Assembly (NCBI GenBank): GCA_002796125.1 | Contig: PCWA01000075.1 | Coordinates: 10,317-74,316 of the forward strand | Reading direction: 5' to 3' | Length of the DNA stretch: 64,000 nucleotides | Origin: Candidatus Ghiorseimicrobium undicola | GTDB taxonomy: Bacteria; Omnitrophota; Gorgyraeia; Ghiorseimicrobiales; Ghiorseimicrobiaceae | In this document: piece by piece, positions 4,778 to 64,000 of the stretch | Position numbering within the stretch: the stretch's first letter is position 1 | How the letters are laid out: every line of letters begins with the position of its first letter | Program-made: the position numbers and the translations under genes | Notes under the pieces: model-generated | Seen by the model: only the letters and a program-made list of their open reading frames with translations | What the model was told of the DNA's origin: nothing | Database searches by the model: none

Positions 4778-4806
4778 ATAATAACACAATAACGCTATCG
4801 CGTCAA
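4778..4806 (-). promoter_or_regulatory. Putative sigma70-type promoter for the rplU-obg-proBA-nadD operon
   Basis: On the minus strand: TTGACG, 17-nt spacer, TATTAT, about 30 nt upstream of the AGGAGG RBS of rplU. Coordinates approximate (+/-2). Confidence 0.35.
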
Positions 4807-4827
4807 CCCCGTTAGAGATTACGATAA

Positions 4828-5049
4828 TGTCAAATAAATTGTGTAAATTGTTTATCCATGGCTGCCTTGTCCCGATTTTTCGCAGGGACGCATAATTTTC
4901 CCCTGCGTGGAAAATTATGCTCCGCTACTCGGCCTCGCTCTGGCCGACAGGTAATCAAAGGCCAGCCGTGCCCGCTCGGCCTGCGTTAGGCCCTGCTCAA
5001 AATCAGTCCAAGCCAGCAGGTAAATTTACATAATTTATTCTACTCAACC
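4828..5049 (-). mobile_element. MITE-like repeat family A, copy 1 (reverse orientation)
   Basis: About 220 bp, matches 23567-23800 and 41176-41322. Imperfect terminal inverted repeats are ...ataaatt(a/g)tgtaaatt. Internal hairpins. Confidence 0.7.
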
Positions 5050-5054
5050 AGAGA

Positions 5055-6521
5055 TTATGGTGTTATTCTCAGCTCTTCACCGGCCATTTCCCTCGATGCG
5101 ATAACGTTGATCTTCTTTTTAAAATCTTTTTCCAACTTTAAAAGGTGGCGCCTGTCATCGCCCTGCAATCTTTCGGCAATCTGCGGGGGTAAATATATGT
5201 CTACTTCTCTTATTTGCCGCCCTCCAGCCTTAAGCTTCTTCTTTAATTCCTTTAAAGCCAGAATAGAAAGAGTAGCTGCCGATTTAACCTTACCCTTGCC
5301 GGCGCAATGAGGGCATGTCACATAGGATACGCTTTCGACCGCCTGATGCGTACGCTCGCGAGTCATTTCCACAAGGCATAACTTAGACATGCCCAGGATG
5401 TCAGTTTTCGCGTGGTCAAAAGATAAAGCATATTTTAGCTTACTCATTACAGCCCGCCGATGAGCATCCCTGGACATATCAATAAAATCTATCACTATGA
5501 TTCCGCCTAAATCCCTTAAGCGTAACTGCCGGGCTATTTCTACTGCCGCCTCTATATTTACGGTAAAGGCCATATCTTCCTGCCCTGTTTTTTTCTTAAA
5601 CCTGCCGCTATTGACATCTACTACCACCAACCCTTCAGTCGGCTCGATAATAATATAGCCTCCGCATTTCAGGAAAATCTTCGCTTCGTATATCTTATCT
5701 ATCTGCTCTTCAACATGTTTATGCTCAAAAAGAGGCATGGGCTGGCGATACCACTCCACTCTTTTTTTAAGATGTGATAAAAACGTGGAGATAAACCTGT
5801 AGACTCTTTTAAATTCATATTTTGAGTCGATAATCAGCTTGTTTACGTCTTCTCCGAACGAATCGCGTACCACGCGCAGCACCACATCATACTCTTCATA
5901 TACTAAAGAAGGCGCTTTCTTGCGGGAGGTGTTCTTTAAAATGCTGCGCCAGAGCTTTAACAAAAAATGCGCGTCTCTTTGCAATTCACGCTGGCTCTTG
6001 CCCTGACTTGCGGTACGCACTATAAAACCAATATCCTTAGGGAGCTTAAGCTCATTAAGTAAAGCGCGCATCCTGACTCTTTCTTTATCGTCTTCGATTC
6101 TACGCGATATGCCGTGGTGAGCATCTTGGGGCATAACAACTAAATATCTGCCGGGGATAGAAATATGAGAAGTAAGCCGCGGCCCTTTGGTGCCAAACTG
6201 TTCTTTCACAACCTGGACCAGTATTTCCTGCCCTTCTTTAAATTCTCTGGCAACTCCTCCGTTCTTATGGCCGTTCGTATCAAATTCTACTTCTAAATCA
6301 AAGGCTTCCGATAAATAAAGGAATCCTTTTTTGACAAGCCCGATATCCACAAAAGCGGCACCGATAGATTTTACTATCGAGTCAATCCTGCCTTTATAGA
6401 TATTGCCGACGAGCGGTTTCTTATCAGGCCTTTCAATATAAAAATCACAAATACGGCCGTCTTCAACCACCACTACCCTTTTTTCTTGAGGTTCTATATT
6501 TACAAGTATTTCTTTAGACAT
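5055..6521 (-). CDS. rng: ribonuclease G (RNase E/G family)
   Basis: 488 aa. N-terminal S1 domain (DIGLVKKGFLY...) followed by the RNase E/G catalytic core. The size fits Rng rather than Rne. Confidence 0.85.
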   Translation of the reverse strand: MSKEILVNIEPQEKRVVVVEDGRICDFYIERPDKKPLVGNIYKGRIDSIVKSIGAAFVDIGLVKKGFLYLSEAFDLEVEFDTNGHKNGGVAREFKEGQEILVQVVKEQFGTKGPRLTSHISIPGRYLVVMPQDAHHGISRRIEDDKERVRMRALLNELKLPKDIGFIVRTASQGKSQRELQRDAHFLLKLWRSILKNTSRKKAPSLVYEEYDVVLRVVRDSFGEDVNKLIIDSKYEFKRVYRFISTFLSHLKKRVEWYRQPMPLFEHKHVEEQIDKIYEAKIFLKCGGYIIIEPTEGLVVVDVNSGRFKKKTGQEDMAFTVNIEAAVEIARQLRLRDLGGIIVIDFIDMSRDAHRRAVMSKLKYALSFDHAKTDILGMSKLCLVEMTRERTHQAVESVSYVTCPHCAGKGKVKSAATLSILALKELKKKLKAGGRQIREVDIYLPPQIAERLQGDDRRHLLKLEKDFKKKINVIASREMAGEELRITP

Positions 6522-18018: not shown

Positions 18019-19731
18019 TTATTCGCCTTCGCTGGTAACGCGCAAAACCTCTTCTATGGACGTAATGCCTTTAGAAAGCTTTAAATGGGCGTCTTGCCTT
18101 AAAGTGATCATGCCGCACTTAGAAACCGCGTATTCTTTTATTTTATCCATAGAATGCCTATTTATGATCATTGTCCTTATTTGGTCATCTATTTCGAATA
18201 TTTCCAATATCCCTATTCTACCAAAATACCCGGTATTATTGCAATAGTCGCATCCTTTGCCATGATAAAAAACCGCATCTTTATCTATAGCCATTCCCAG
18301 CTTAGCCAAAACCTCCCTGGATATATTTTGTACTTCTTTGCAACGGGGGCAAAGAGTACGTACGAGCCTTTGCGCGCAAGCCATAATTACGCTTGAAGCC
18401 ACCAGAAACGGCTCAACATTCATATCAATAAGGCGGCTGATTATGCCTATGGCATCATTGGTATGCAAAGTAGACAAAACTAATTGCCCGGTCAAAGCGG
18501 CCTTGACAGCTATATCTGCCGTCTCGGAATCACGTATCTCGCCAATCATTATTACATCCGGGCTCTGGCGCAGCAGAGAACGTAAGCCGGAAGCAAAAGT
18601 AAGGCCTGCCTCGCTATTAACCTGAATCTGCGTAATGCCCTCTACCTGATACTCTACGGGATCTTCGATAGTAATAATATTCCTCTCCGGAGTGTTTAAC
18701 TGGCTTAAAACAGAATAGAGCGTGGTTGATTTACCGGAGCCGGTAGGCCCGGTCACTAAAATCATTCCATAAGGCTTGCTTACCGCCTTTTTAAATAAAG
18801 CTAAAGGCCTCTGGCTAAACCCCAGGCTGTCCAGCCCTATAGAAAGATTGGATTTATCTAATATCCTTAAGACAAATTTTTGTCCAAAAATAGTAGGCAG
18901 GGCGGAAACACGAAAATCCACCTCCTTGCCTTCCATGCGGATCTTAAACCTACCGTCCTGAGGAACGCGTGATTCTGTAATATTCAGCCCGGAAATTATC
19001 TTTATGCGGGCAAGAACCGCGTTTTGATTGGCCTTTGGTAAAGTAAAAGCATCCTGCAATTCTCCGTCAATACGATAGCGTACACGCAACGCCCTTTCTT
19101 CCGGCTCGATATGTATATCGGAAGAACGGCGTTTTAAAGCCTGGGCTATCATTAAATCTACAATTTTGACAATCGGCGCTTTTTTACTCTCTGCCAAAGT
19201 ATCGGCTAAATCAATGGATATGCCAAGATCCGCCTCTTTATGCACTATATCCTGAGATTCAGAAACATTCTTTAAAATATCGGTTATGCTTTCTTTGTCC
19301 GATTTATAATAATTGGCTATTGCTTTGGAAATTTCAGAATCCAAACACATAACTGGCTGTATTTCGTAATTTGTCAGCATCTTTAAATCATCCAGAGCAA
19401 AAATATTCAGCGGATCGCTCATAGCGACTGTCAGGACATTGCCGATTTTTGATATCGCGATTAAGTGATACTGGCGGGCGATACGCTCCGGGATTAAATC
19501 TATCGTATCCTTATTTATTTTATAACGCGATAAATCTAACGGTGGGATATAAAGCTCTTTTGAAAGCAGAGAAAAAAGTTCTTCTTCTTTTACAAATCCG
19601 CCGTCTATCAAAAGCTGCTTGATGTTTACGCCTTTTTCTTCCTGCAGTTTCAATATTTTTTTCATCTGGGACTGATTAATGAGCTTATTATCAATAAGTA
19701 TTTTAATCAGTTTTTCCTGTAATGTGGCCAT
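18019..19731 (-). CDS. pilB: type IV pilus assembly ATPase PilB (GspE family), copy 1
   Basis: N-terminal GspE-N domain, Walker A GPTGSGKSTTLYS, Walker B, His box, and C-terminal CxxC...CxxC zinc motif. Confidence 0.85.
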   Translation of the reverse strand: MATLQEKLIKILIDNKLINQSQMKKILKLQEEKGVNIKQLLIDGGFVKEEELFSLLSKELYIPPLDLSRYKINKDTIDLIPERIARQYHLIAISKIGNVLTVAMSDPLNIFALDDLKMLTNYEIQPVMCLDSEISKAIANYYKSDKESITDILKNVSESQDIVHKEADLGISIDLADTLAESKKAPIVKIVDLMIAQALKRRSSDIHIEPEERALRVRYRIDGELQDAFTLPKANQNAVLARIKIISGLNITESRVPQDGRFKIRMEGKEVDFRVSALPTIFGQKFVLRILDKSNLSIGLDSLGFSQRPLALFKKAVSKPYGMILVTGPTGSGKSTTLYSVLSQLNTPERNIITIEDPVEYQVEGITQIQVNSEAGLTFASGLRSLLRQSPDVIMIGEIRDSETADIAVKAALTGQLVLSTLHTNDAIGIISRLIDMNVEPFLVASSVIMACAQRLVRTLCPRCKEVQNISREVLAKLGMAIDKDAVFYHGKGCDYCNNTGYFGRIGILEIFEIDDQIRTMIINRHSMDKIKEYAVSKCGMITLRQDAHLKLSKGITSIEEVLRVTSEGE

Positions 19732-19792: not shown

Positions 19793-21514
19793 TTATTTCT
19801 CATCTGCTGCGGTAACCTTCAACACTTCTTCTATAGTGGTTATACCTGCATATGCTTTTTCCATACCGGACTCTCTTAGCGTTTGCATTCCGGAAGCACG
19901 CGCCGATTCTTTTATTTTATGCTCCTCTGCGGCGTTAATAATCAAATCTTTAACCGCTGTATCAAGGGTAAAAATCTCGCCTATGCTGATCCTGCCTTTA
20001 TAGCCGGAATTTAAACAAGCAGCACAGCCCTTGCCTCTATAAAATACCGCCGGTTTGCCTTTGGGGTGTTTTATATTCAGCTTATCTAATGATTCTTCGT
20101 TTAATGTATACGCTTCTTTGCACTTAGGACAAATCACGCGTACCAGCCTTTGGGCAATTGCGCATACCACCGAAGATACAATTAAAAACGGTTCAACCCC
20201 CATATTGACAAGCCGCACTATAGAACCGGCGGCTGTTGTGGTGTGAAGCGTTGAAAGGACTAAATGCCCCGTCAAGGCTGATTTGATAGCTATGTCGGCG
20301 GTATCAAAATCCCTTATCTCTCCCACCATGATTATATCCGGATCCTGACGCAAGATAGAACGAAGGCTGGAAGCAAAAGTCAAGCCGACTTCTTCTCTTA
20401 TGTTAACCTGGTTTATGCCCGCCAACTGGTACTCTACCGGATCTTCAACGGTAATAATATTCAGCTGGGGTTTATTAATAAGATTTAATAAAGAGTATAG
20501 CGTGGTTGTCTTACCGCTGCCTGTTGGCCCGGTCACCAAAATCATACCGTGCGGCCTAAGGGCATTTCGTTTGATTAATTCTAAATCCCGGTTTGAAAAA
20601 CCCAACTGGTCTATATCCAGCGTCGTCGAGCTCCTGTCTAATATGCGCAGGGCGGCTTTTTCGCCAAAGCTCGACGGCAGTATCGATACGCGGAAATCGA
20701 CTTCCCTTCCCTCAATTCTAATCTTGAATCTGCCGTCCTGCGGTATTCTATGTTCCGATATATTAAGGTTGGATATGACCTTTATGCGTGAAATAATGGA
20801 AGCATGTAAAGATTTTGGGGGCGATTCCTTTTCCCGCAATGAGCCGTCTACCCTGAAACGTATACGCATAGCACGGTCAAACGGTTCAATTAATATATCC
20901 GACGCCTTTAACTTTATCGCGTCTTCCAATATCATATTAGTAATTTTAATAACCGGGGCTTCCTGGCTTAACTGGATAAGAGTGCCGGCATCAAGGCTAT
21001 CTTCTTTATCATCTTTTTTTATTAATTCAATCTGAAAATCCGATATATCCTTAAGTACCGTATTAAATGTACTTTGATCGCTGGAGCCGTAATACCTCTC
21101 CAGGGAAGCGGCTATGTCCTCAGATGAAGCTATTAACGGTATAATTTTATAACCTGTGAGGGCGCGAATATCATCTATGACAAATATATCCAGCGGGTCA
21201 GCCATGACTACCGTCAAAAAATCTTTTCTCTTGGATAAAGGGATAATTTGATAATGCCGGGCGGTTTGGGCGGGAATAGTTTCCAGAATCTCCGGTTCGA
21301 TCTCCAGCTGGGAAAGCTCGATACAGGGGAATCCTAACCCCTGGCTCAGAACAGATACCAAATCTTTTTCATTAATAAATTTCAGCCCTATTAATATATC
21401 TCTTAATTTCCCGCCCTTTTCTTTTTGAACCTGCAAAGCCGTTTTTAATTGTTCTTCATTTATCAGGTTATTTTTTAACAATATTTCTGAAAGGCGGTCC
21501 TTTAAAGAAGGCAT
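19793..21514 (-). CDS. PilB/GspE/MshE-like secretion ATPase, copy 2 (paralog)
   Basis: Same architecture, Walker A GPTGSGKTTTLYS and a tetracysteine motif. The N-terminus RLSEILLKNNLINEEQLKTALQVQ resembles the MshEN c-di-GMP-binding motif. Confidence 0.8.
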   Translation of the reverse strand: MPSLKDRLSEILLKNNLINEEQLKTALQVQKEKGGKLRDILIGLKFINEKDLVSVLSQGLGFPCIELSQLEIEPEILETIPAQTARHYQIIPLSKRKDFLTVVMADPLDIFVIDDIRALTGYKIIPLIASSEDIAASLERYYGSSDQSTFNTVLKDISDFQIELIKKDDKEDSLDAGTLIQLSQEAPVIKITNMILEDAIKLKASDILIEPFDRAMRIRFRVDGSLREKESPPKSLHASIISRIKVISNLNISEHRIPQDGRFKIRIEGREVDFRVSILPSSFGEKAALRILDRSSTTLDIDQLGFSNRDLELIKRNALRPHGMILVTGPTGSGKTTTLYSLLNLINKPQLNIITVEDPVEYQLAGINQVNIREEVGLTFASSLRSILRQDPDIIMVGEIRDFDTADIAIKSALTGHLVLSTLHTTTAAGSIVRLVNMGVEPFLIVSSVVCAIAQRLVRVICPKCKEAYTLNEESLDKLNIKHPKGKPAVFYRGKGCAACLNSGYKGRISIGEIFTLDTAVKDLIINAAEEHKIKESARASGMQTLRESGMEKAYAGITTIEEVLKVTAADEK

Positions 21515-21622: not shown

Positions 21623-22084
21623 CTATTTTTTATAAAATCTTTCGATAGCATTTTTTATATCGGTAGTGGTGCTTATAAAAATCTGCACGGTAGAATTAGC
21701 TAACAGCTCAATGTCATCTACAGCCTGCAGGTTAAGGGGATTAGACATGGCGACTGTTAAATTACTCCCTATTTTATCGATCGCGATCAGGCAATATTGT
21801 TTAGCCACATTATAAGGAACAATCCGCACAATATCGGTATCTATCTCATAATTTGCCAAGGGAAGATACGGAAAACCATACTGCGCGGTAAGCGCCTGAG
21901 CAATAGCCTCTTCCGTAACAAAACCCAGGCTTACAAGAATTTCGCCTACCAGCCCGCCTTTCTCCTTTTGAAGATTAAGGGCTTCAATAAGCTGGCGCTG
22001 CGAAATCATATTTCGCTCAACTAATAACTCGCCTAATTGTTTAGGATTAATCCGCCTTAAAGGTAACGGCATATTTTTAATCAA
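21623..22084 (-). CDS. standalone GspE N-terminal (T2SSE_N / MshEN-like) domain protein
   Basis: 153 aa. KQLGELLVERNMISQRQLIEALNLQ...GFVTEEAIAQALTAQYGFPYLPL...VAKQYCLIAIDKIGSNLTVAMSNPLNLQAVDDIE aligns along its length with the N-domains of the two PilB paralogs. No ATPase domain. Confidence 0.6.
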   Translation of the reverse strand: MIKNMPLPLRRINPKQLGELLVERNMISQRQLIEALNLQKEKGGLVGEILVSLGFVTEEAIAQALTAQYGFPYLPLANYEIDTDIVRIVPYNVAKQYCLIAIDKIGSNLTVAMSNPLNLQAVDDIELLANSTVQIFISTTTDIKNAIERFYKK

Positions 22085-23457
22085 GAAGCTAATAAGTCCT
22101 TCACTTTATTAATTAAATCTGTTGCGTTAATTCCGTCTATAGGATTTTCGCTGACAGCACGGTTCAACGTAATTCTTTTTTTGACGTCCGTTTCTTCGCC
22201 ATATATATACTCTATCTTTTTTACCATATCTTGGGCGATATTTTCAGCCTGGCGCTTGTTTTTTTCAGGGAGAACTATAGCAAATTCACTGTCTGAGAAC
22301 CTGGCAGCTTTATCTATTTCTCCGATATTGCTTTTTATAATCATGGCTATTTTCTTTAATACGGATTCCGCATGCGCAGAACCGAAATTCGCGCAAAACT
22401 CTTTATAACGATTAATACTTAAAACAATAAAAGCGCACGGCCTTTGGCTTATTATGGCCCTCTTTATTTCTTCTTCCAGCCTTTCCTTTATAAAAGAAGA
22501 ATTGTAAAGTCCGGTTAAAGCATCCTTAACTTCAAGGCGATTGATATGATTCAAAAGTATATCATTCTCTATGGCGATAGTTATTTGTTTTACAAAGATA
22601 TCGATAAGCTTAAAATTATCATCCCGGTATTCCAAATTTCTGTCATTTCCTATGCCGGCCAAGCCAAATACCTTGCCATGAACATATATAGGCGCGATAA
22701 CAGCGTCTGTCAGAGCGAATATGCGCCTAAACTCATCAATCATTTTATTGGGCGGCACTTTCTTGTTCAACGCAAATGTTTTTCTATCTTTTAAAACTTT
22801 GGCGAATATATTATCCGATGCCGCATTAAACTCCCTATTCAACAAATAGTCGGAATTAATGCCGTAGATAGATTTTACCAATATTTTTTCTTCCTGTTTC
22901 AGCAGTAAAAATGCCGAATCTGAATCGCCTATCTGCAGCATTTTTTCTACGCTTAGATCTAATGTCTCATTAATATCGGCGCCTTCGGAAATAAACGAAC
23001 TTACCTGTAAAAGGCTGGAGAGAATAACCACCTTACGGTTAATTTCCAGATTTATTTCTTTAGTTTCCTGGCCGTATTTTTCAAGCTCCCTCATATTATT
23101 TTTTATGCGGCAAGTCAACTGCTGCAAGGCATCTTCCAAATCACCGATTTCATCATCGCGTTTTGCCCGGGATACATAATCAACTTCACCTCTGGCTATG
23201 TCCTTCGCTTTGGAAGAAATATTAATTATGGGGTCTATAACCTGCTTAATTATAAAAAAACCGCTTACAGCCACAAAAATACTTATACAAACCAATAAAT
23301 AAATATTTGATTTAATGCCTATGGTGGGAAGCATATAAGTCGAAATTACATATATGGATATCAATAACGGCAACACAGACATAAGATAAAAACTTATGCG
23401 CAATTTATACCGTAAGCCGCGTGACGACAAGGATAATTGTTTTAAAATATTTTTCAT
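22081..23457 (-). CDS. membrane sensor with HAMP-like, GAF-like and a degenerate GGDEF domain (SDSEF in place of GGDEF)
   Basis: Two N-terminal TM helices. DALTGLYNSSFIKERLEEE...ARFSDSEFAIVLPE matches the GGDEF domain layout but with the active-site GG(D/E)EF replaced. Confidence 0.65.
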   Translation of the reverse strand: MKNILKQLSLSSRGLRYKLRISFYLMSVLPLLISIYVISTYMLPTIGIKSNIYLLVCISIFVAVSGFFIIKQVIDPIINISSKAKDIARGEVDYVSRAKRDDEIGDLEDALQQLTCRIKNNMRELEKYGQETKEINLEINRKVVILSSLLQVSSFISEGADINETLDLSVEKMLQIGDSDSAFLLLKQEEKILVKSIYGINSDYLLNREFNAASDNIFAKVLKDRKTFALNKKVPPNKMIDEFRRIFALTDAVIAPIYVHGKVFGLAGIGNDRNLEYRDDNFKLIDIFVKQITIAIENDILLNHINRLEVKDALTGLYNSSFIKERLEEEIKRAIISQRPCAFIVLSINRYKEFCANFGSAHAESVLKKIAMIIKSNIGEIDKAARFSDSEFAIVLPEKNKRQAENIAQDMVKKIEYIYGEETDVKKRITLNRAVSENPIDGINATDLINKVKDLLAS

Positions 23458-23520: not shown

Positions 23521-23549
23521 ATAGTATTCTATATTTTAGATACTGTCAA
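23521..23549 (-). promoter_or_regulatory. Putative sigma70-type promoter for the GGDEF-like/MshEN-like/pilB2/pilB1/HD-GYP/pilC gene run
   Basis: On the minus strand: TTGACA, 17 nt, TACTAT. An AAAGGAGTG RBS lies 5 nt before the ATG of the GGDEF-like gene. Coordinates approximate. Confidence 0.4.
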
Positions 23550-23566
23550 TATATCTAACCCAAGCG

Positions 23567-23800
23567 GTAGTATACGGAAAATTATGTAAATTCGCCTGCT
23601 GGCTTGGGCTGATTTTGAGCAGGGCGTAACGCAGGCCGAGCGGGCAAGGTTCGCCTTTGATTGCATATTGGCGAGAGCGAGGCCGAGTAGCCGAGCGCGA
23701 TTTTCCACGCTGGGGAAAATCGCGCGTCCCCGCGAAAAATAAGGTCAAGCCAGCGGCCATATTAATCCGCTATAATTTACACAATTTATTCTACACAACC
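23567..23800 (+). mobile_element. MITE-like repeat family A, copy 2 (full length, about 234 bp)
   Basis: Matches 4828-5049 (reverse complement) and 41176-41322. Terminal inverted repeats and internal hairpins. The 74-aa track ORF inside it is considered spurious. Confidence 0.7.
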
Positions 23801-23818
23801 AACCCAAGCTATTCCTGC

Positions 23819-35710: not shown

Positions 35711-36304
35711 TTATCCTTTATTGCTGCTTTTTAATTTCATAAAAGCAATTACGAATCCCAGGGTCAACAGCGCTCCGGGTGCAAGTATCATCACAGACGC
35801 CGGCTCATAGCCCTTTATTAAAACAAACCCGAAAATCTTGCCTGCTCCCAAAATCTCGCGTATGGAAGATATTATTAAAAGCGCCAGCGTAAAGCCGCAC
35901 CCCATGCCTAAAGCGTCAAATGCCGAATGCAGAATATTACGCTTGGAAGCAAAGGCCTCCGCCCTTCCCAAAACAATACAGTTTACCACTATCAAAGGGA
36001 CAAAAATCCCCAGGGATTTATTTAGCGCGGGAAAATATGCTTTCAAAAGCATCTCTACAATTGTTACAAATGTCGCGATAACCACGATAAAACAGGGAAT
36101 GCGAATTTTATCCGGAATAACCTTGCGCAATGATGAAACAATAATGTTTGAGCCAAAAAGAACAAATGTCGCAGCAGCACCCATCCCTATGGCGTTTATG
36201 GCGGAGACCGATACCGCAAGCGTAGGACATAACCCTAACGCCAAAACCAAAACAGGATTTTCCTTTAGCAAACCTTTATTGAATTCCGGTATTATTTTTC
36301 TCAT
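35711..36304 (-). CDS. rnfE: Rnf complex subunit E
   Basis: NqrD/RnfE family membrane protein. Operon position. Confidence 0.85.
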   Translation of the reverse strand: MRKIIPEFNKGLLKENPVLVLALGLCPTLAVSVSAINAIGMGAAATFVLFGSNIIVSSLRKVIPDKIRIPCFIVVIATFVTIVEMLLKAYFPALNKSLGIFVPLIVVNCIVLGRAEAFASKRNILHSAFDALGMGCGFTLALLIISSIREILGAGKIFGFVLIKGYEPASVMILAPGALLTLGFVIAFMKLKSSNKG

Positions 36305-36313
36305 CTAATGAGG

Positions 36314-36363
36314 CCATAACTTATGGAGCTCGAAGAGCGACATAAGTTATTTGGCCGAATTAC
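36314..36363. repeat. Hairpin repeat family C unit (ATAACTTATGGAGCTCGAAGAGCGACATAAGTTAT + TTGGCCGAATTAC) between the rnfD stop and the rnfE start
   Basis: Seen directly. Related units at 39379-39650, 58023-58131 and 63564-63606. Confidence 0.7.
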
Positions 36364-37301
36364 GGCGAATACCTCTTCGGCCTGACAAACCTGTCTATCA
36401 ACGGCACAAAAGCATTCATTATAAGTATAGAATAACTGACGCCTTCGGGATAACCGCCCCATTTTCTAATCACAAATGTGAGCAGTCCGCACCCTAAGCC
36501 AAAAATAAACTGCCCTTTTGCCGTTAACGGAGTAGTTACATAATCCGTTGCCATGAAAAATGCTCCCAGGATCAAGCCTCCGGAAAGTACCGCGAATATA
36601 AAATCGCCCTTAAATAACGCTTCTCCTGAAAATATCCAGCTTAAAAGAGCAACTATCGTAATAAAAGCAAAAGGCGCATGAAGCGAAATTATTTTTCTCA
36701 CCCACAGATAAAGTGCCCCAATAAGTAAAGCAACAATACAAACTTCGCCTATACATCCGCCTCTGCCACCGGTTAAAAAATCAAAATATGATAGATTCAT
36801 CTGGCCGAGGTTCAATGCCTTTCCTTCCTTAAGCAAGGCCAGCGGCGTGGCAGCCGTTATGCTGTCATACGGCTTTATGAATGTCGTCATATAAGTAGGC
36901 CAGGCAGCCAGTAAAAACGCCCTGCCTACCAAAGCCGGATTAAAGATATTTCTGCCCAAGCCGCCAAATGCCTGCTTGGCAACCGCTATAGCAACAAAAC
37001 TTCCCACAACCGGAAGCCATAAAGGAACGTTGGCGGGCAGGTTATAGCTAAGCAGCAATCCGGTAAGAATCGCGCTGGCATCCAGAATACTGACTTTTTT
37101 TCCGCGCAGGCGGCAAATAAGGGCCTCAAACAACAGCGCGGAAAAAACTCCTGCAAGCATTACCCACAAAGCTCCAATCCCGAATATCCATACGCCGGCA
37201 ATGCCCGAAGGGATAAGAGCAATTACTACTGCCCACATAATATACGATACCGATTCTTTTCTATGTATATGGGGAGATGTGGAAACTATTAGATTATCCA
37301 T
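36360..37301 (-). CDS. rnfD: Rnf complex subunit D
   Basis: MDNLIVSTSPHIH... is the RnfD/NqrB N-terminus (SSPH.H), a polytopic protein. The start is placed at the ATG (about 37299-37301). The track ORF starts at an upstream TTG inside the family-B palindrome. Confidence 0.85.
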   Translation of the reverse strand: MDNLIVSTSPHIHRKESVSYIMWAVVIALIPSGIAGVWIFGIGALWVMLAGVFSALLFEALICRLRGKKVSILDASAILTGLLLSYNLPANVPLWLPVVGSFVAIAVAKQAFGGLGRNIFNPALVGRAFLLAAWPTYMTTFIKPYDSITAATPLALLKEGKALNLGQMNLSYFDFLTGGRGGCIGEVCIVALLIGALYLWVRKIISLHAPFAFITIVALLSWIFSGEALFKGDFIFAVLSGGLILGAFFMATDYVTTPLTAKGQFIFGLGCGLLTFVIRKWGGYPEGVSYSILIMNAFVPLIDRFVRPKRYSP

Positions 37302-37309
37302 ATTCAAAC

Positions 37310-37415
37310 GTCTATCGTCCAACGGTTGCGTAACTGGAAACGCTTATCGCTAATCGTAAAACGTAAAACTGATAAACGAAATACGAATGACGTTTCGAGC
37401 TACGCAACCGATAGC
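37310..37415. repeat. Repeat family B long palindrome, copy 2 (between rnfG and rnfD)
   Basis: ctatcgtccaacggttgcgtaactgg...cgagctacgcaaccgatag, homologous to 965-1070. Confidence 0.7.
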
Positions 37416-39378: not shown

Positions 39379-39650
39379 ATAACTTACGGAGTTCGAAGAA
39401 CGACGTAAGTTATTTGCGCGAATTACTCCGCGGAATATTGAAAAATTATCGAAGAGAATTTTTCAATGTTTATGCAGCGAAGCATGAACCCATCCGCCTT
39501 ACGGCGAGATATGGGCGAATTATCCCGAAGCCTGCGAAGTAAATTTCGAAGAAATTTACGAGTGTTTAGGCGAGGGAACATTATTAATACTAATGGGCAC
39601 ATAAGTTACGGAGGCGCAGCCGACGTAACTTATAAGCGCGAATTATTCCG
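39379..39650. repeat. Composite of family C hairpins upstream of rnfC: two AACTTACGG...CGTAAGTT units plus two TCGAAGA-loop hairpins (ATTGAAAAATTATCGAAGAGAATTTTTCAAT; GTAAATTTCGAAGAAATTTAC)
   Basis: Seen directly. Overlaps the last codons of the MFS gene. Confidence 0.7.
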
Positions 39651-41044: not shown

Positions 41045-41117
41045 AGCCGATGAGAGGAATCGAACCTCCGGCCCGCGCTTTACGAAAGCGCTGCTCTGCC
41101 AACTGAGCTACATCGGC
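41045..41117 (-). tRNA. tRNA-Thr (anticodon CGU)
   Basis: Reverse-complement cloverleaf GCCGATG TA GCTC AGTTGGCA GAGC A GCGCT TTCGTAA AGCGC GGGCC GGAGG TTCGATT CCTCT CATCGGC with the GTTCGATTCC T-arm. No encoded CCA. Confidence 0.8.
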
Positions 41118-41175
41118 AAACTTGAAGTAATATAATATCAAATTTAGGCAATATTGCCAATATTTTTGATTAGGA

Positions 41176-41322
41176 GGTAGTATGCTGAAAATTATGTAAA
41201 TTCATGCTGGCTTGGGCTGATTTTGAGCAGGGCGTAACGCAGGCCGAGCGCCTGCGAAAAATAAGGCCGAGCCAGCGGCCATGTTAATCCGCTATAATTT
41301 ACACAATTTATTCTAGACAACC
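41176..41322 (+). mobile_element. MITE-like repeat family A, copy 3 (internally deleted, about 147 bp) next to tRNA-Thr
   Basis: Both termini match copy 2. The central ~85 bp are missing. Confidence 0.65.
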
Positions 41323-41334
41323 TGATTAGGATGT

Positions 41335-43837: not shown

Positions 43838-43966
43838 TTCGCCTCCTCAATGAACACATCCGCCGTAGGCAGACAAGTACGAATTTTCGCCGTAAGCGAA
43901 TCTCATGCCGTAGGCAGATCAGCCTGCGGCTGAAATCCCGAAGCCTACATAGTAATTTTAAAAAAT

Positions 43967-58022: not shown

Positions 58023-58181
58023 CGCGCAACTTACGCAGCGAAGCGAACGTAAGTTGTTTGCGCGAATTAATCCCGAAGCCTACGAAGTAAATTTCGAAGA
58101 AATTTACGAGTGCTTAGGCGAGGGATACATTTTACAACAATCAAGCAACCTAACCATAGTCCAACATGGCGTTAGGTTAAG
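58023..58181. repeat. Family C hairpin composite (CAACTTACG...CGTAAGTTG + GTAAATTTCGAAGAAATTTAC + AACCTAAC...GTTAGGTT)
   Basis: Seen directly. Near-identical to 39524-39582. Confidence 0.7.
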
Positions 58182-63395: not shown

Positions 63396-63606
63396 ATCCC
63401 TCGCCTAAGCATCGGGTAAATCTCTTTGATATTTACCCGGTAGGCTTCGGGTAGGTTCGGATTAAGCAGTATTTATCATAAACTAAATTATAACCTACTC
63501 CGAAGCTTAAGGGGTAAATTCTCCAAAGAGAATTTACCCCTTGCTTAAGCAAGGAGATAATTCGGCCTTATAACTTACGTCGGCTTCGCCTCCGTAAGTT
63601 ATGGCC
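63396..63606. repeat. Family C hairpin composite between lpxK and waaA (inverted CCCGAAGCC...GTAAAT units, GGGGTAAATTCTC...GAGAATTTACCCC, and GGCCTTATAACTTACG...CGTAAGTTATGGCC)
   Basis: Seen directly. The last hairpin overlaps the waaA stop. Confidence 0.7.
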
Positions 63607-64000
63607 TCATTAATTGAGAAATTAAATTTAGATTGCGCTCTGTCGCGCCTTGATTTTCAGATATTAAACGTTTTGCCCTGATCCCAATATTTTTTGCATA
63701 GTCCGCATCATATAAAATCTTGCACAAGGCTTCTTCAAGCCCGCCCTCATCGGCTACCTCGATAGCCGCATTATTTTTAAGATAAAGCGAAGCAATATGC
63801 GTAAAATTAAACATATACCTGCCGAATACTATGGGTTTCTGGAAATATGCCGGCTCGATAATATTCTGCCCGCCTTTTTTGACAAGGCTGCCTCCGACAA
63901 ATACCACATAGGCAAATTTATAAATTGAGCTTAATTGCCCTATCGTATCCAAAATAATCACTGAGCGCGGCATTTCTTTAAAATTATCAGCTGAAAATCT
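63599..64000 (-). CDS. waaA: 3-deoxy-D-manno-octulosonic acid transferase, C-terminal part (gene continues past the window end)
   Basis: ...VFVGGSLVKKGGQNIIEPAYFQKPIVFGRYMFNFTHIA... is the KdtA C-terminal GT-B region. The frame is open to the window edge. Confidence 0.75.
   Translation of the reverse strand, partial: RFSADNFKEMPRSVIILDTIGQLSSIYKFAYVVFVGGSLVKKGGQNIIEPAYFQKPIVFGRYMFNFTHIASLYLKNNAAIEVADEGGLEEALCKILYDADYAKNIGIRAKRLISENQGATERNLNLISQLMRP

Follow-up and report, generated by a model that had tools for sequence, protein, structure and literature searches.

[quoted passage not shown] The Chunjie elements of Geobacter uraniireducens measure 178-235 bp, and their TIRs of 21 bp come with direct repeats of 9 bp (PMC3184786); bcr1 of the Bacillus cereus group, a repeat of about 155 bp, is mobile and intergenic, and compensatory changes keep its cruciform-like fold (PMC3184786). 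The Correia elements of Neisseria are MITEs found mostly directly upstream of genes, where they affect transcription (PMC10969869, PMC3184786). In Escherichia coli, IS5 inserts upstream of the glpFK, bgl, flhDC and fucAO promoters, a promoter-side insertion attributed to deformable, destabilised DNA and to bending of the target by DDE transposases, which in general prefer deformable targets (PMC5493358).

Our analysis supports the reading of three repeats in the genome of Candidatus Ghiorseimicrobium undicola (Omnitrophota), all within one 64-kb stretch of DNA (the window), as copies of a non-autonomous DNA transposon, a MITE of a new family. By the published definition the element belongs among the prokaryotic MITEs, its very stable fold included (PMC10969869). 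It shares its size class and duplication length with Chunjie, which is described as A+T-rich, in contrast to the G+C-rich core found here (PMC3184786). Copy 2 (23566..23800, + strand) is full length at 235 bp and belongs to subfamily A; its promoter-side terminus, GGTAGTATACGGAAAATTATGTAAATT, occupies 23566-23592, and the opposite end, 23774-23800 (reverse complement GGTTGTGTAGAATAAATTGTGTAAATT), resembles that of IS903. Copy 1 (4823..5049, - strand), at 227 bp a member of subfamily B, has its IS903-like terminus at 5023-5049 and its promoter-side terminus, GATAATGTCAAATAAATTGTGTAAATT, at 4823-4849. Copy 3 (41176..41322, + strand; 147 bp) is a deletion derivative of subfamily A. The three copies and the central deletion of the third had already been proposed in a preliminary description made from the letters of the window; all three copies stand, but their starts shift, copy 1 beginning at 4823 rather than 4828 and copy 2 at 23566, and alignment of the three sizes the deletion at about 86 bp (147 versus 235 nt), leaving the long hairpin of the element in place and removing its three-way junction.

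The terminal inverted repeats proposed earlier at about 27 bp are borne out, as 27-bp imperfect TIRs common to all three copies, and in the three-copy alignment both ends and the core are shared throughout. The two TIRs of a copy agree at 20/27 positions within copies 1 and 2, and at 26/27 within a copy from another assembly, L013. The TIR core AAATTRTGTAAATT has six matches in the 64-kb window, exclusively at the six predicted ends (0.40 expected), and a 29-nt word from the element's core occurs three times (0 expected); a search with a profile built from 11 family members found no additional copy in the window. Sizes range from 147 to 235 bp, and the ORFs inside are spurious, with no coding capacity. 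A protein-coding reading was rejected on the alignment, whose variable columns track stems, not codon positions.

Each window copy is bordered by a 9-bp target-site duplication (TSD), a feature that the preliminary description had not recorded. The duplication of copy 2, AACCCAAGC, is identical at 9/9 positions on its left (23557..23565) and right (23801..23809), as is that of copy 3, TGATTAGGA (41167..41175 and 41323..41331; 9/9); copy 1 has, on the - strand, ATAATCTCT at 5050..5058, which includes the TAA stop codon of an RNase G gene, and GTAATCTCT at 4814..4822, matching at 8/9 positions with the combined form (A/G)TAATCTCT. Outside the window, TSDs are present at L008 (9/9), L017 (8/9) and L013 (7/9), and at about 6-8/9 at L009, L011 and L007 after boundary shifts of 1-3 nt; L010a and L016 have none. 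Beyond the nine bases the flanks show no relatedness between copies. Duplications of this kind set in otherwise unrelated flanks indicate transposition, and segmental duplication is rejected on the same two observations.

The same reading is supported by at least 12 further insertion sites in other, independent assemblies, all with unrelated flanks. About 14 distinct sites are now known in Ghiorseimicrobium-like contigs, together with two diverged relatives, L006 and L018; the approximately 14 all come from metagenome assemblies of one habitat and represent about four sequence lineages. The 29-nt core word has a single match in 185,579 species genomes, which is L006, a metagenome-assembled genome (MAG) labelled Planctomycetales, not Geobacter, the genus of Chunjie; nine matches in JGI metagenomes all fall in sample Ga0210019, none of them at the window loci, and viral contigs, plasmids and phages gave no match. 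L001b, L010b, L016, L017 and L018 were added through BLAST, profile searches and ORF handles, the last being spurious internal frames used as protein queries: a 74-aa frame retrieved three proteins, and an in-frame alignment retrieved five, of which one was new (L018). Extension beyond the end of the window gave no new copy. Independent assemblies from ENA, JGI and Logan also contain the window insertions themselves, as does an NCBI MAG of the same organism. Strain-level contigs were retrieved through the flanking proteins, with exact variants and 90%-cluster members; every one of them has the insertion or breaks within it, and we found no empty site, all retrieved strains carrying copies 1 and 3.

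The approximately 86-bp deletion of copy 3 recurs in an independent copy at a different site, L010a, and the occurrence of the same deletion at two sites implies that the short form itself has spread. Contigs often end inside the element (L002, L012, L015, L019, L020), the kind of assembly break that a dispersed repeat should cause. At L016:9961-10195 the element and its right flank, a radical SAM gene, are the same as at copy 2 (window 23566-23800), with a thioredoxin operon replacing the GGDEF gene on the left; this could reflect recombination or rearrangement between two copies, or else an assembly that is chimeric across the repeat. About 1.7 kb before window position 1, at L001:13337-13397, lies a truncated fourth copy consisting of the left terminus and about 40 nt of core, which adjoins a TTGACA-N17-CATAAT motif at about 12 nt. 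Covariation and conserved termini are both present, and the flanking sequence is not duplicated. We are confident that the element is a MITE mobilised by a DDE transposase, an enzyme that we infer, cutting with a 9-bp stagger.

Other repeats occur in the window. A second set of small palindromic repeats, unrelated to the MITE, is scattered over intergenic gaps at 36297-36366, 39401-39649, 43934-43963, 58047-58125 and 63416-63621, including within the rnf operon and beside LPS genes; examples read AACTTACG...CGTAAGTT then GCGAATTA, and ATCCCGAAGCCTACGAAGTAAATTTCGAAGAAATTTACGAGTG.TTAGGCGAGGGA. An 88-nt repeat pair (971-1072 and 37310-37409; 83% identical) is rich in CGTAAAACG-like units and has inverted ends, with one copy between rnfD- and rnfG-like genes, and a 300-nt direct repeat (18459-18758 and 20239-20538; 71% identical) falls within adjacent paralogous PilB/T2SSE-like ATPase genes.

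The element folds as one long hairpin: the TIRs pair with one another and lead into a G+C-rich stem and a three-way junction with two hairpins, the G+C-rich core being 150 nt long. Folding of the two strands of copy 2 gives z-scores of -3.4 and -4.6; copy 1 reaches -7.7, and the short copy 3 scores -2.5. In copy 2, hairpin H2 (23648..23675, + strand; TTCGCC...GGCGAG) contains two covarying pairs and hairpin H3 (23693..23725, + strand; GAGCGCGATTTTCC ACGCTGG GGAAAATCGCGC) three adjacent ones. In an alignment of 11 distinct cores (A4), standard pairs fill 97.5% of cells, a share that drops to 31-47% once partners are shifted by 1-3 columns; both sides have changed in ten pairs, compared with 6.2+-1.2 in shuffles, of which 1 in 500 attains ten, and the covariation score is 0.193 versus 0.103. 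With about four lineages represented, these are few independent events. The stem difference between copies that first drew attention to the fold is real, GC[GCG]ATTTTCC/GGAAAAT[CGC]GC in copy 2 being replaced by [ATA]/[TAT] in copy 1, and the wider alignment has the H3 stem in three forms (GCG/CGC, ATA/TAT and ACA/TGT) with a G.T intermediate in L018. The bcr1 repeat provides a precedent for such covariation; it differs in having 5-bp direct repeats, in belonging to another phylum and in sharing no sequence similarity with the element, and its transcription has been demonstrated (PMC3184786).

The preliminary description had read the paired change in the stem as consistent with selection on structure. 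The change stands, as one among ten such pairs, but it does not separate selection from templated repair, since compensatory change fits RNA selection, DNA-hairpin selection or templated repair of a palindrome alike. Paired changes could arise without selection by template switching within an imperfect palindrome (quasipalindrome correction), and the form of the data lends this some plausibility: the H3 changes are three adjacent positions swapped together (GCG, ATA or ACA), the whole element is nearly palindromic and the independent lineages are few. Yet L018 retains an intermediate changed on a single side; conservation across subfamilies extends to loops, bulges and several mismatches, which correction would have homogenised; and one covarying pair, C-G in five sequences and G-C in six, joins columns 34 and 101, which lie 67 nt apart and outside the simple local hairpins. 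We consider template switching a rather unlikely explanation of the paired changes, and favour compensatory substitutions that would keep the G+C-rich core, long stem and three-way junction together, in its paired state.

The placement of the copies proved unexpectedly regular. Copies 1 and 2 had been described as abutting promoters and copy 3 as lying beside tRNA-Thr; both descriptions hold, with 10/12 matches to a sigma70-like consensus firing away from copies 1 and 2, and the predicted tRNA-Thr promoter next to copy 3 matches at 10/12 and points away from the element as well. These promoters are consensus matches from a sigma70-type scan. All three are on the - strand: TTGACA-N17-TACTAT at 23521..23549, serving the GGDEF gene (22081-23457, - strand), with its -35 starting 16 nt from the terminus of copy 2; TTGACG-N17-TATTAT at 4778..4806, the predicted rplU promoter, its -35 starting 16 nt from copy 1; and TTGGCA-N17-TATTAT at 41132..41160, ahead of tRNA-Thr (41045-41117, - strand), its -35 starting 15 nt from copy 3. 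Across the family, 13 element ends (12 sites plus a terminus at a contig end, L008, with three boundaries adjusted by 1-3 nt) face an outward predicted promoter whose -35 starts 15-16 nt away, a span made up of the 9-bp duplication and about 7 nt. Under a strict scan with unadjusted boundaries, 9 of 12 sites are phased in this way, compared with 0.82% of intergenic-like positions at these loci (binomial p ~4e-17). At one intact copy, L007, the phased position has no promoter. The spacers between -35 and -10 are unrelated from site to site, which implies host promoters; on this ground we rejected the idea that the element brings its promoter along.

Other copies add side observations on neighbouring promoters. 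At L010:5049-5197 a short-form copy without a TSD has an 11/12 promoter on either side; the two are divergent, both are TTGACA/TATAGT but their spacers are unrelated, and each lies 15-16 nt from an element end. At L018:430-560 and L006:160-290 the neighbouring gene's promoter overlaps or abuts the element end; the -10 of the L018 promoter (TTGACA-N17-TACAAT) straddles the terminus, so that the element may supply part of it.

On its other side lies an upstream ORF read in the same direction, whose stop codon precedes the element end by 4-29 nt; it follows that the gaps before insertion were only about 20-45 nt. Such gaps allow a reading in which insertion is random and purifying selection does the rest, copies surviving only between stop codons and promoters in a compact genome; with so little room, and with a TSD at copy 1 that overlaps a stop codon and leaves few possible positions, survival would account for proximity. 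It would not account for the constancy of the distance, which holds on the promoter side (15-16 nt) while the stop-codon side varies from 4 to 29 nt, although other positions had room at copy 2, L009 and L013. Nor does survival predict any orientation, whereas the IS903-like end is distal to the promoter at all informative sites except for one L010a end. We judge purifying selection on random insertions unlikely to explain the pattern. Because distance and orientation are both constant, and survival covers only proximity, target choice best explains an insertion that is apparently promoter-phased and oriented, as the arrangement of these sites suggests. It speaks against targeting that a DDE transposase working on two similar ends does not usually insert in one orientation.

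If targeting is the cause, the staggered 9-bp cut of the transposase would fall some 7 nt before a sigma70-type -35, roughly at positions -43 to -51, and the element, its non-IS903-like end towards the promoter, would land in the 20-45 bp that separate a stop codon from the promoter following it. The likely cue would be an upstream promoter edge that is bent or occupied by RNA polymerase, which with its alpha subunits bends the DNA there, or else TTGACA itself, and such a placement would offer a safe haven in a gene-dense genome. A variant in which the flanking TTGACA serves the transposase as a pseudo-end (the TIR has TTTACA in the same orientation) seems unlikely, as the cut would fall on the wrong side.

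To our knowledge no bacterial DDE element has a fixed phasing to the -35, and none was found in the literature searched; for IS903 we know of no promoter targeting at all. The retrotransposons Ty3, Ty1 and Dictyostelium TRE read the transcription machinery to integrate a short fixed distance upstream of transcription units, a safe haven where the genome is compact; these are eukaryotic retroelements whose integrase is tethered to Pol III factors, and copy 3 resembles their targeting in lying upstream of a tRNA gene, with no homology. The nearest precedent for the placement is IS5 in E. coli, where the loci are few and the distances vary, the target is the 4-bp YTAR and activation is selected for (PMC5493358), unlike the dozen or so unrelated promoters, single fixed -35 distance and 9-bp duplication seen here. 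Correia elements bring their own promoters, in contrast to the host-owned promoters at these sites, and the literature consulted on Chunjie gives no fixed promoter phasing (PMC3184786).

The core occurs in both orientations. It flips relative to the element's own ends (compare copy 1 with L009) and relative to neighbouring transcription; on its + strand G.U pairs occupy 20 cells and A.C combinations 8, or roughly nine versus five events, and these wobble counts give no clear RNA strand. Terminator-like motifs are inconsistent between copies: copy 3 has GGCCGCTGGCTCGGCC+TTATTTTTCG on the transcribed strand, copy 2 a five-pair motif on the + strand only, and copy 1 none within the element. Known RNA families were rejected, no covariance model matching even at E<=10: with Rfam 15 the window yielded nothing but tRNA at gathering thresholds, and the element nothing at E<=10.

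A structured small-RNA gene with a host function, spread by mobile ends or persisting for its RNA in decayed copies, might still be proposed for the core, which between subfamilies remains 79-90% identical where the termini fall to about 50-70%, which is joined to very different ends in L006, L010b and L018, and which covaries. We find this decidedly unlikely, given that the element has neither an Rfam match at E<=10 nor, by scan, an internal promoter, that its core takes both orientations relative to neighbouring transcription and to its own ends, that the deletion form transposed even without the junction and that the strand bias of wobble pairs is unclear. The two-way orientation, together with a junction that mobility can dispense with, favours a hairpin acting at the level of DNA or of a read-through transcript over a strand-specific RNA gene, which the core is unlikely to be. 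The likeliest role would be one indifferent to orientation, a DNA or RNA hairpin that aids propagation or insulates the promoter from read-through.

The termini offer a clue to the parent element. Ends fall into one type like GGYTGTGTARAATAAATTGTGTAAATT and a second like GGTAGTATRCGGAAAATTRTGTAAATT, with further variants GATAATGTCAAATAAATT... and GGCAGCATACTGAAAAGCGCCTAAATT. The IS903B inverted repeat GGCTTTGTTGAATAAATC, checked against plasmid Rts1, is identical at 14/18 positions to GGCTGTGTAAAATAAATT and GGTTGTGTAGAATAAATT, the distal terminus of the GGYTGTGTARAATAAATTGTGTAAATT type; the promoter-side terminus matches it at only 8/18. IS903 (IS5 family, IS903 group) produces 9-bp target duplications, so the two elements agree both in this terminus and in the length of their duplication, and the link depends on that 18-nt match together with the duplication length. 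The absence of a transposase from the window, noted earlier, is upheld by the Pfam lists of the checked ORFs and by scans. A tblastn search of 263 kb of related DNA with the IS903B transposase stayed empty even at E<=10, and neither an autonomous element nor an IS903-like transposase near any copy was found there. A reasonable reading of the termini is that the parent encodes, elsewhere, a DDE transposase of the IS903 group of the IS5 family or a close relative, which would move the MITE in trans. One locus is a candidate for an end of that parent: positions 1-127 of contig Ga0210019_1000192 (L008:1-127) carry the family terminus GGTAGTATACTCAATTGTGTGTAAATT, 16 nt from TTGACA-N17-TATGCT, next to an unrelated interior that reaches the contig end and from which no transposase ORF was recovered.

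The hairpin-rich, intergenic character of the copies and the other small palindromic repeat families in the window could suggest REP/REPIN palindromes moved by a RAYT (Y1) transposase, and a local segmental duplication or an assembly artefact might also yield similar repeats, but the 9-bp TSDs, 27-bp TIRs, IS903-like terminus and unrelated flanks, the identical insertions in independent ENA, JGI, Logan and NCBI assemblies and the lack of a RAYT gene in the window's Pfam lists and scans make all of these extremely improbable. The best explanation of the whole, and one that we regard as probable, is a MITE mobilised in trans by an IS903-like transposase, targeted to promoter edges and carrying a hairpin core that is kept paired.

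MITEs abound, and finding one more family, here in an uncultured phylum, would by itself be a modest result. What makes this one valuable is how regular it is. In each of about a dozen independent insertions a terminus stands 15-16 nt from a -35, the promoters being unrelated and the orientation shared. All of the evidence is computational and comes from metagenome assemblies with few copies. We offer only tentatively, as a possibility more speculative than the account above, that a DDE lineage, comprising the MITE and its unseen parent, reads promoters and inserts in a set orientation about 7 nt upstream of the -35, its covarying hairpin core insulating the promoter from the upstream gene. 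For the organism itself, the element accounts for assembly breaks at these sites, and its ends would give a free map of promoters in an uncultivated bacterium. If the targeting is true, promoter-directed integration would become testable in bacteria, and the system may provide a tool for placing DNA just upstream of promoters while leaving genes intact. If promoters are indeed read, the family would do in bacteria what Ty3 and Ty1 achieve by safe-haven targeting.
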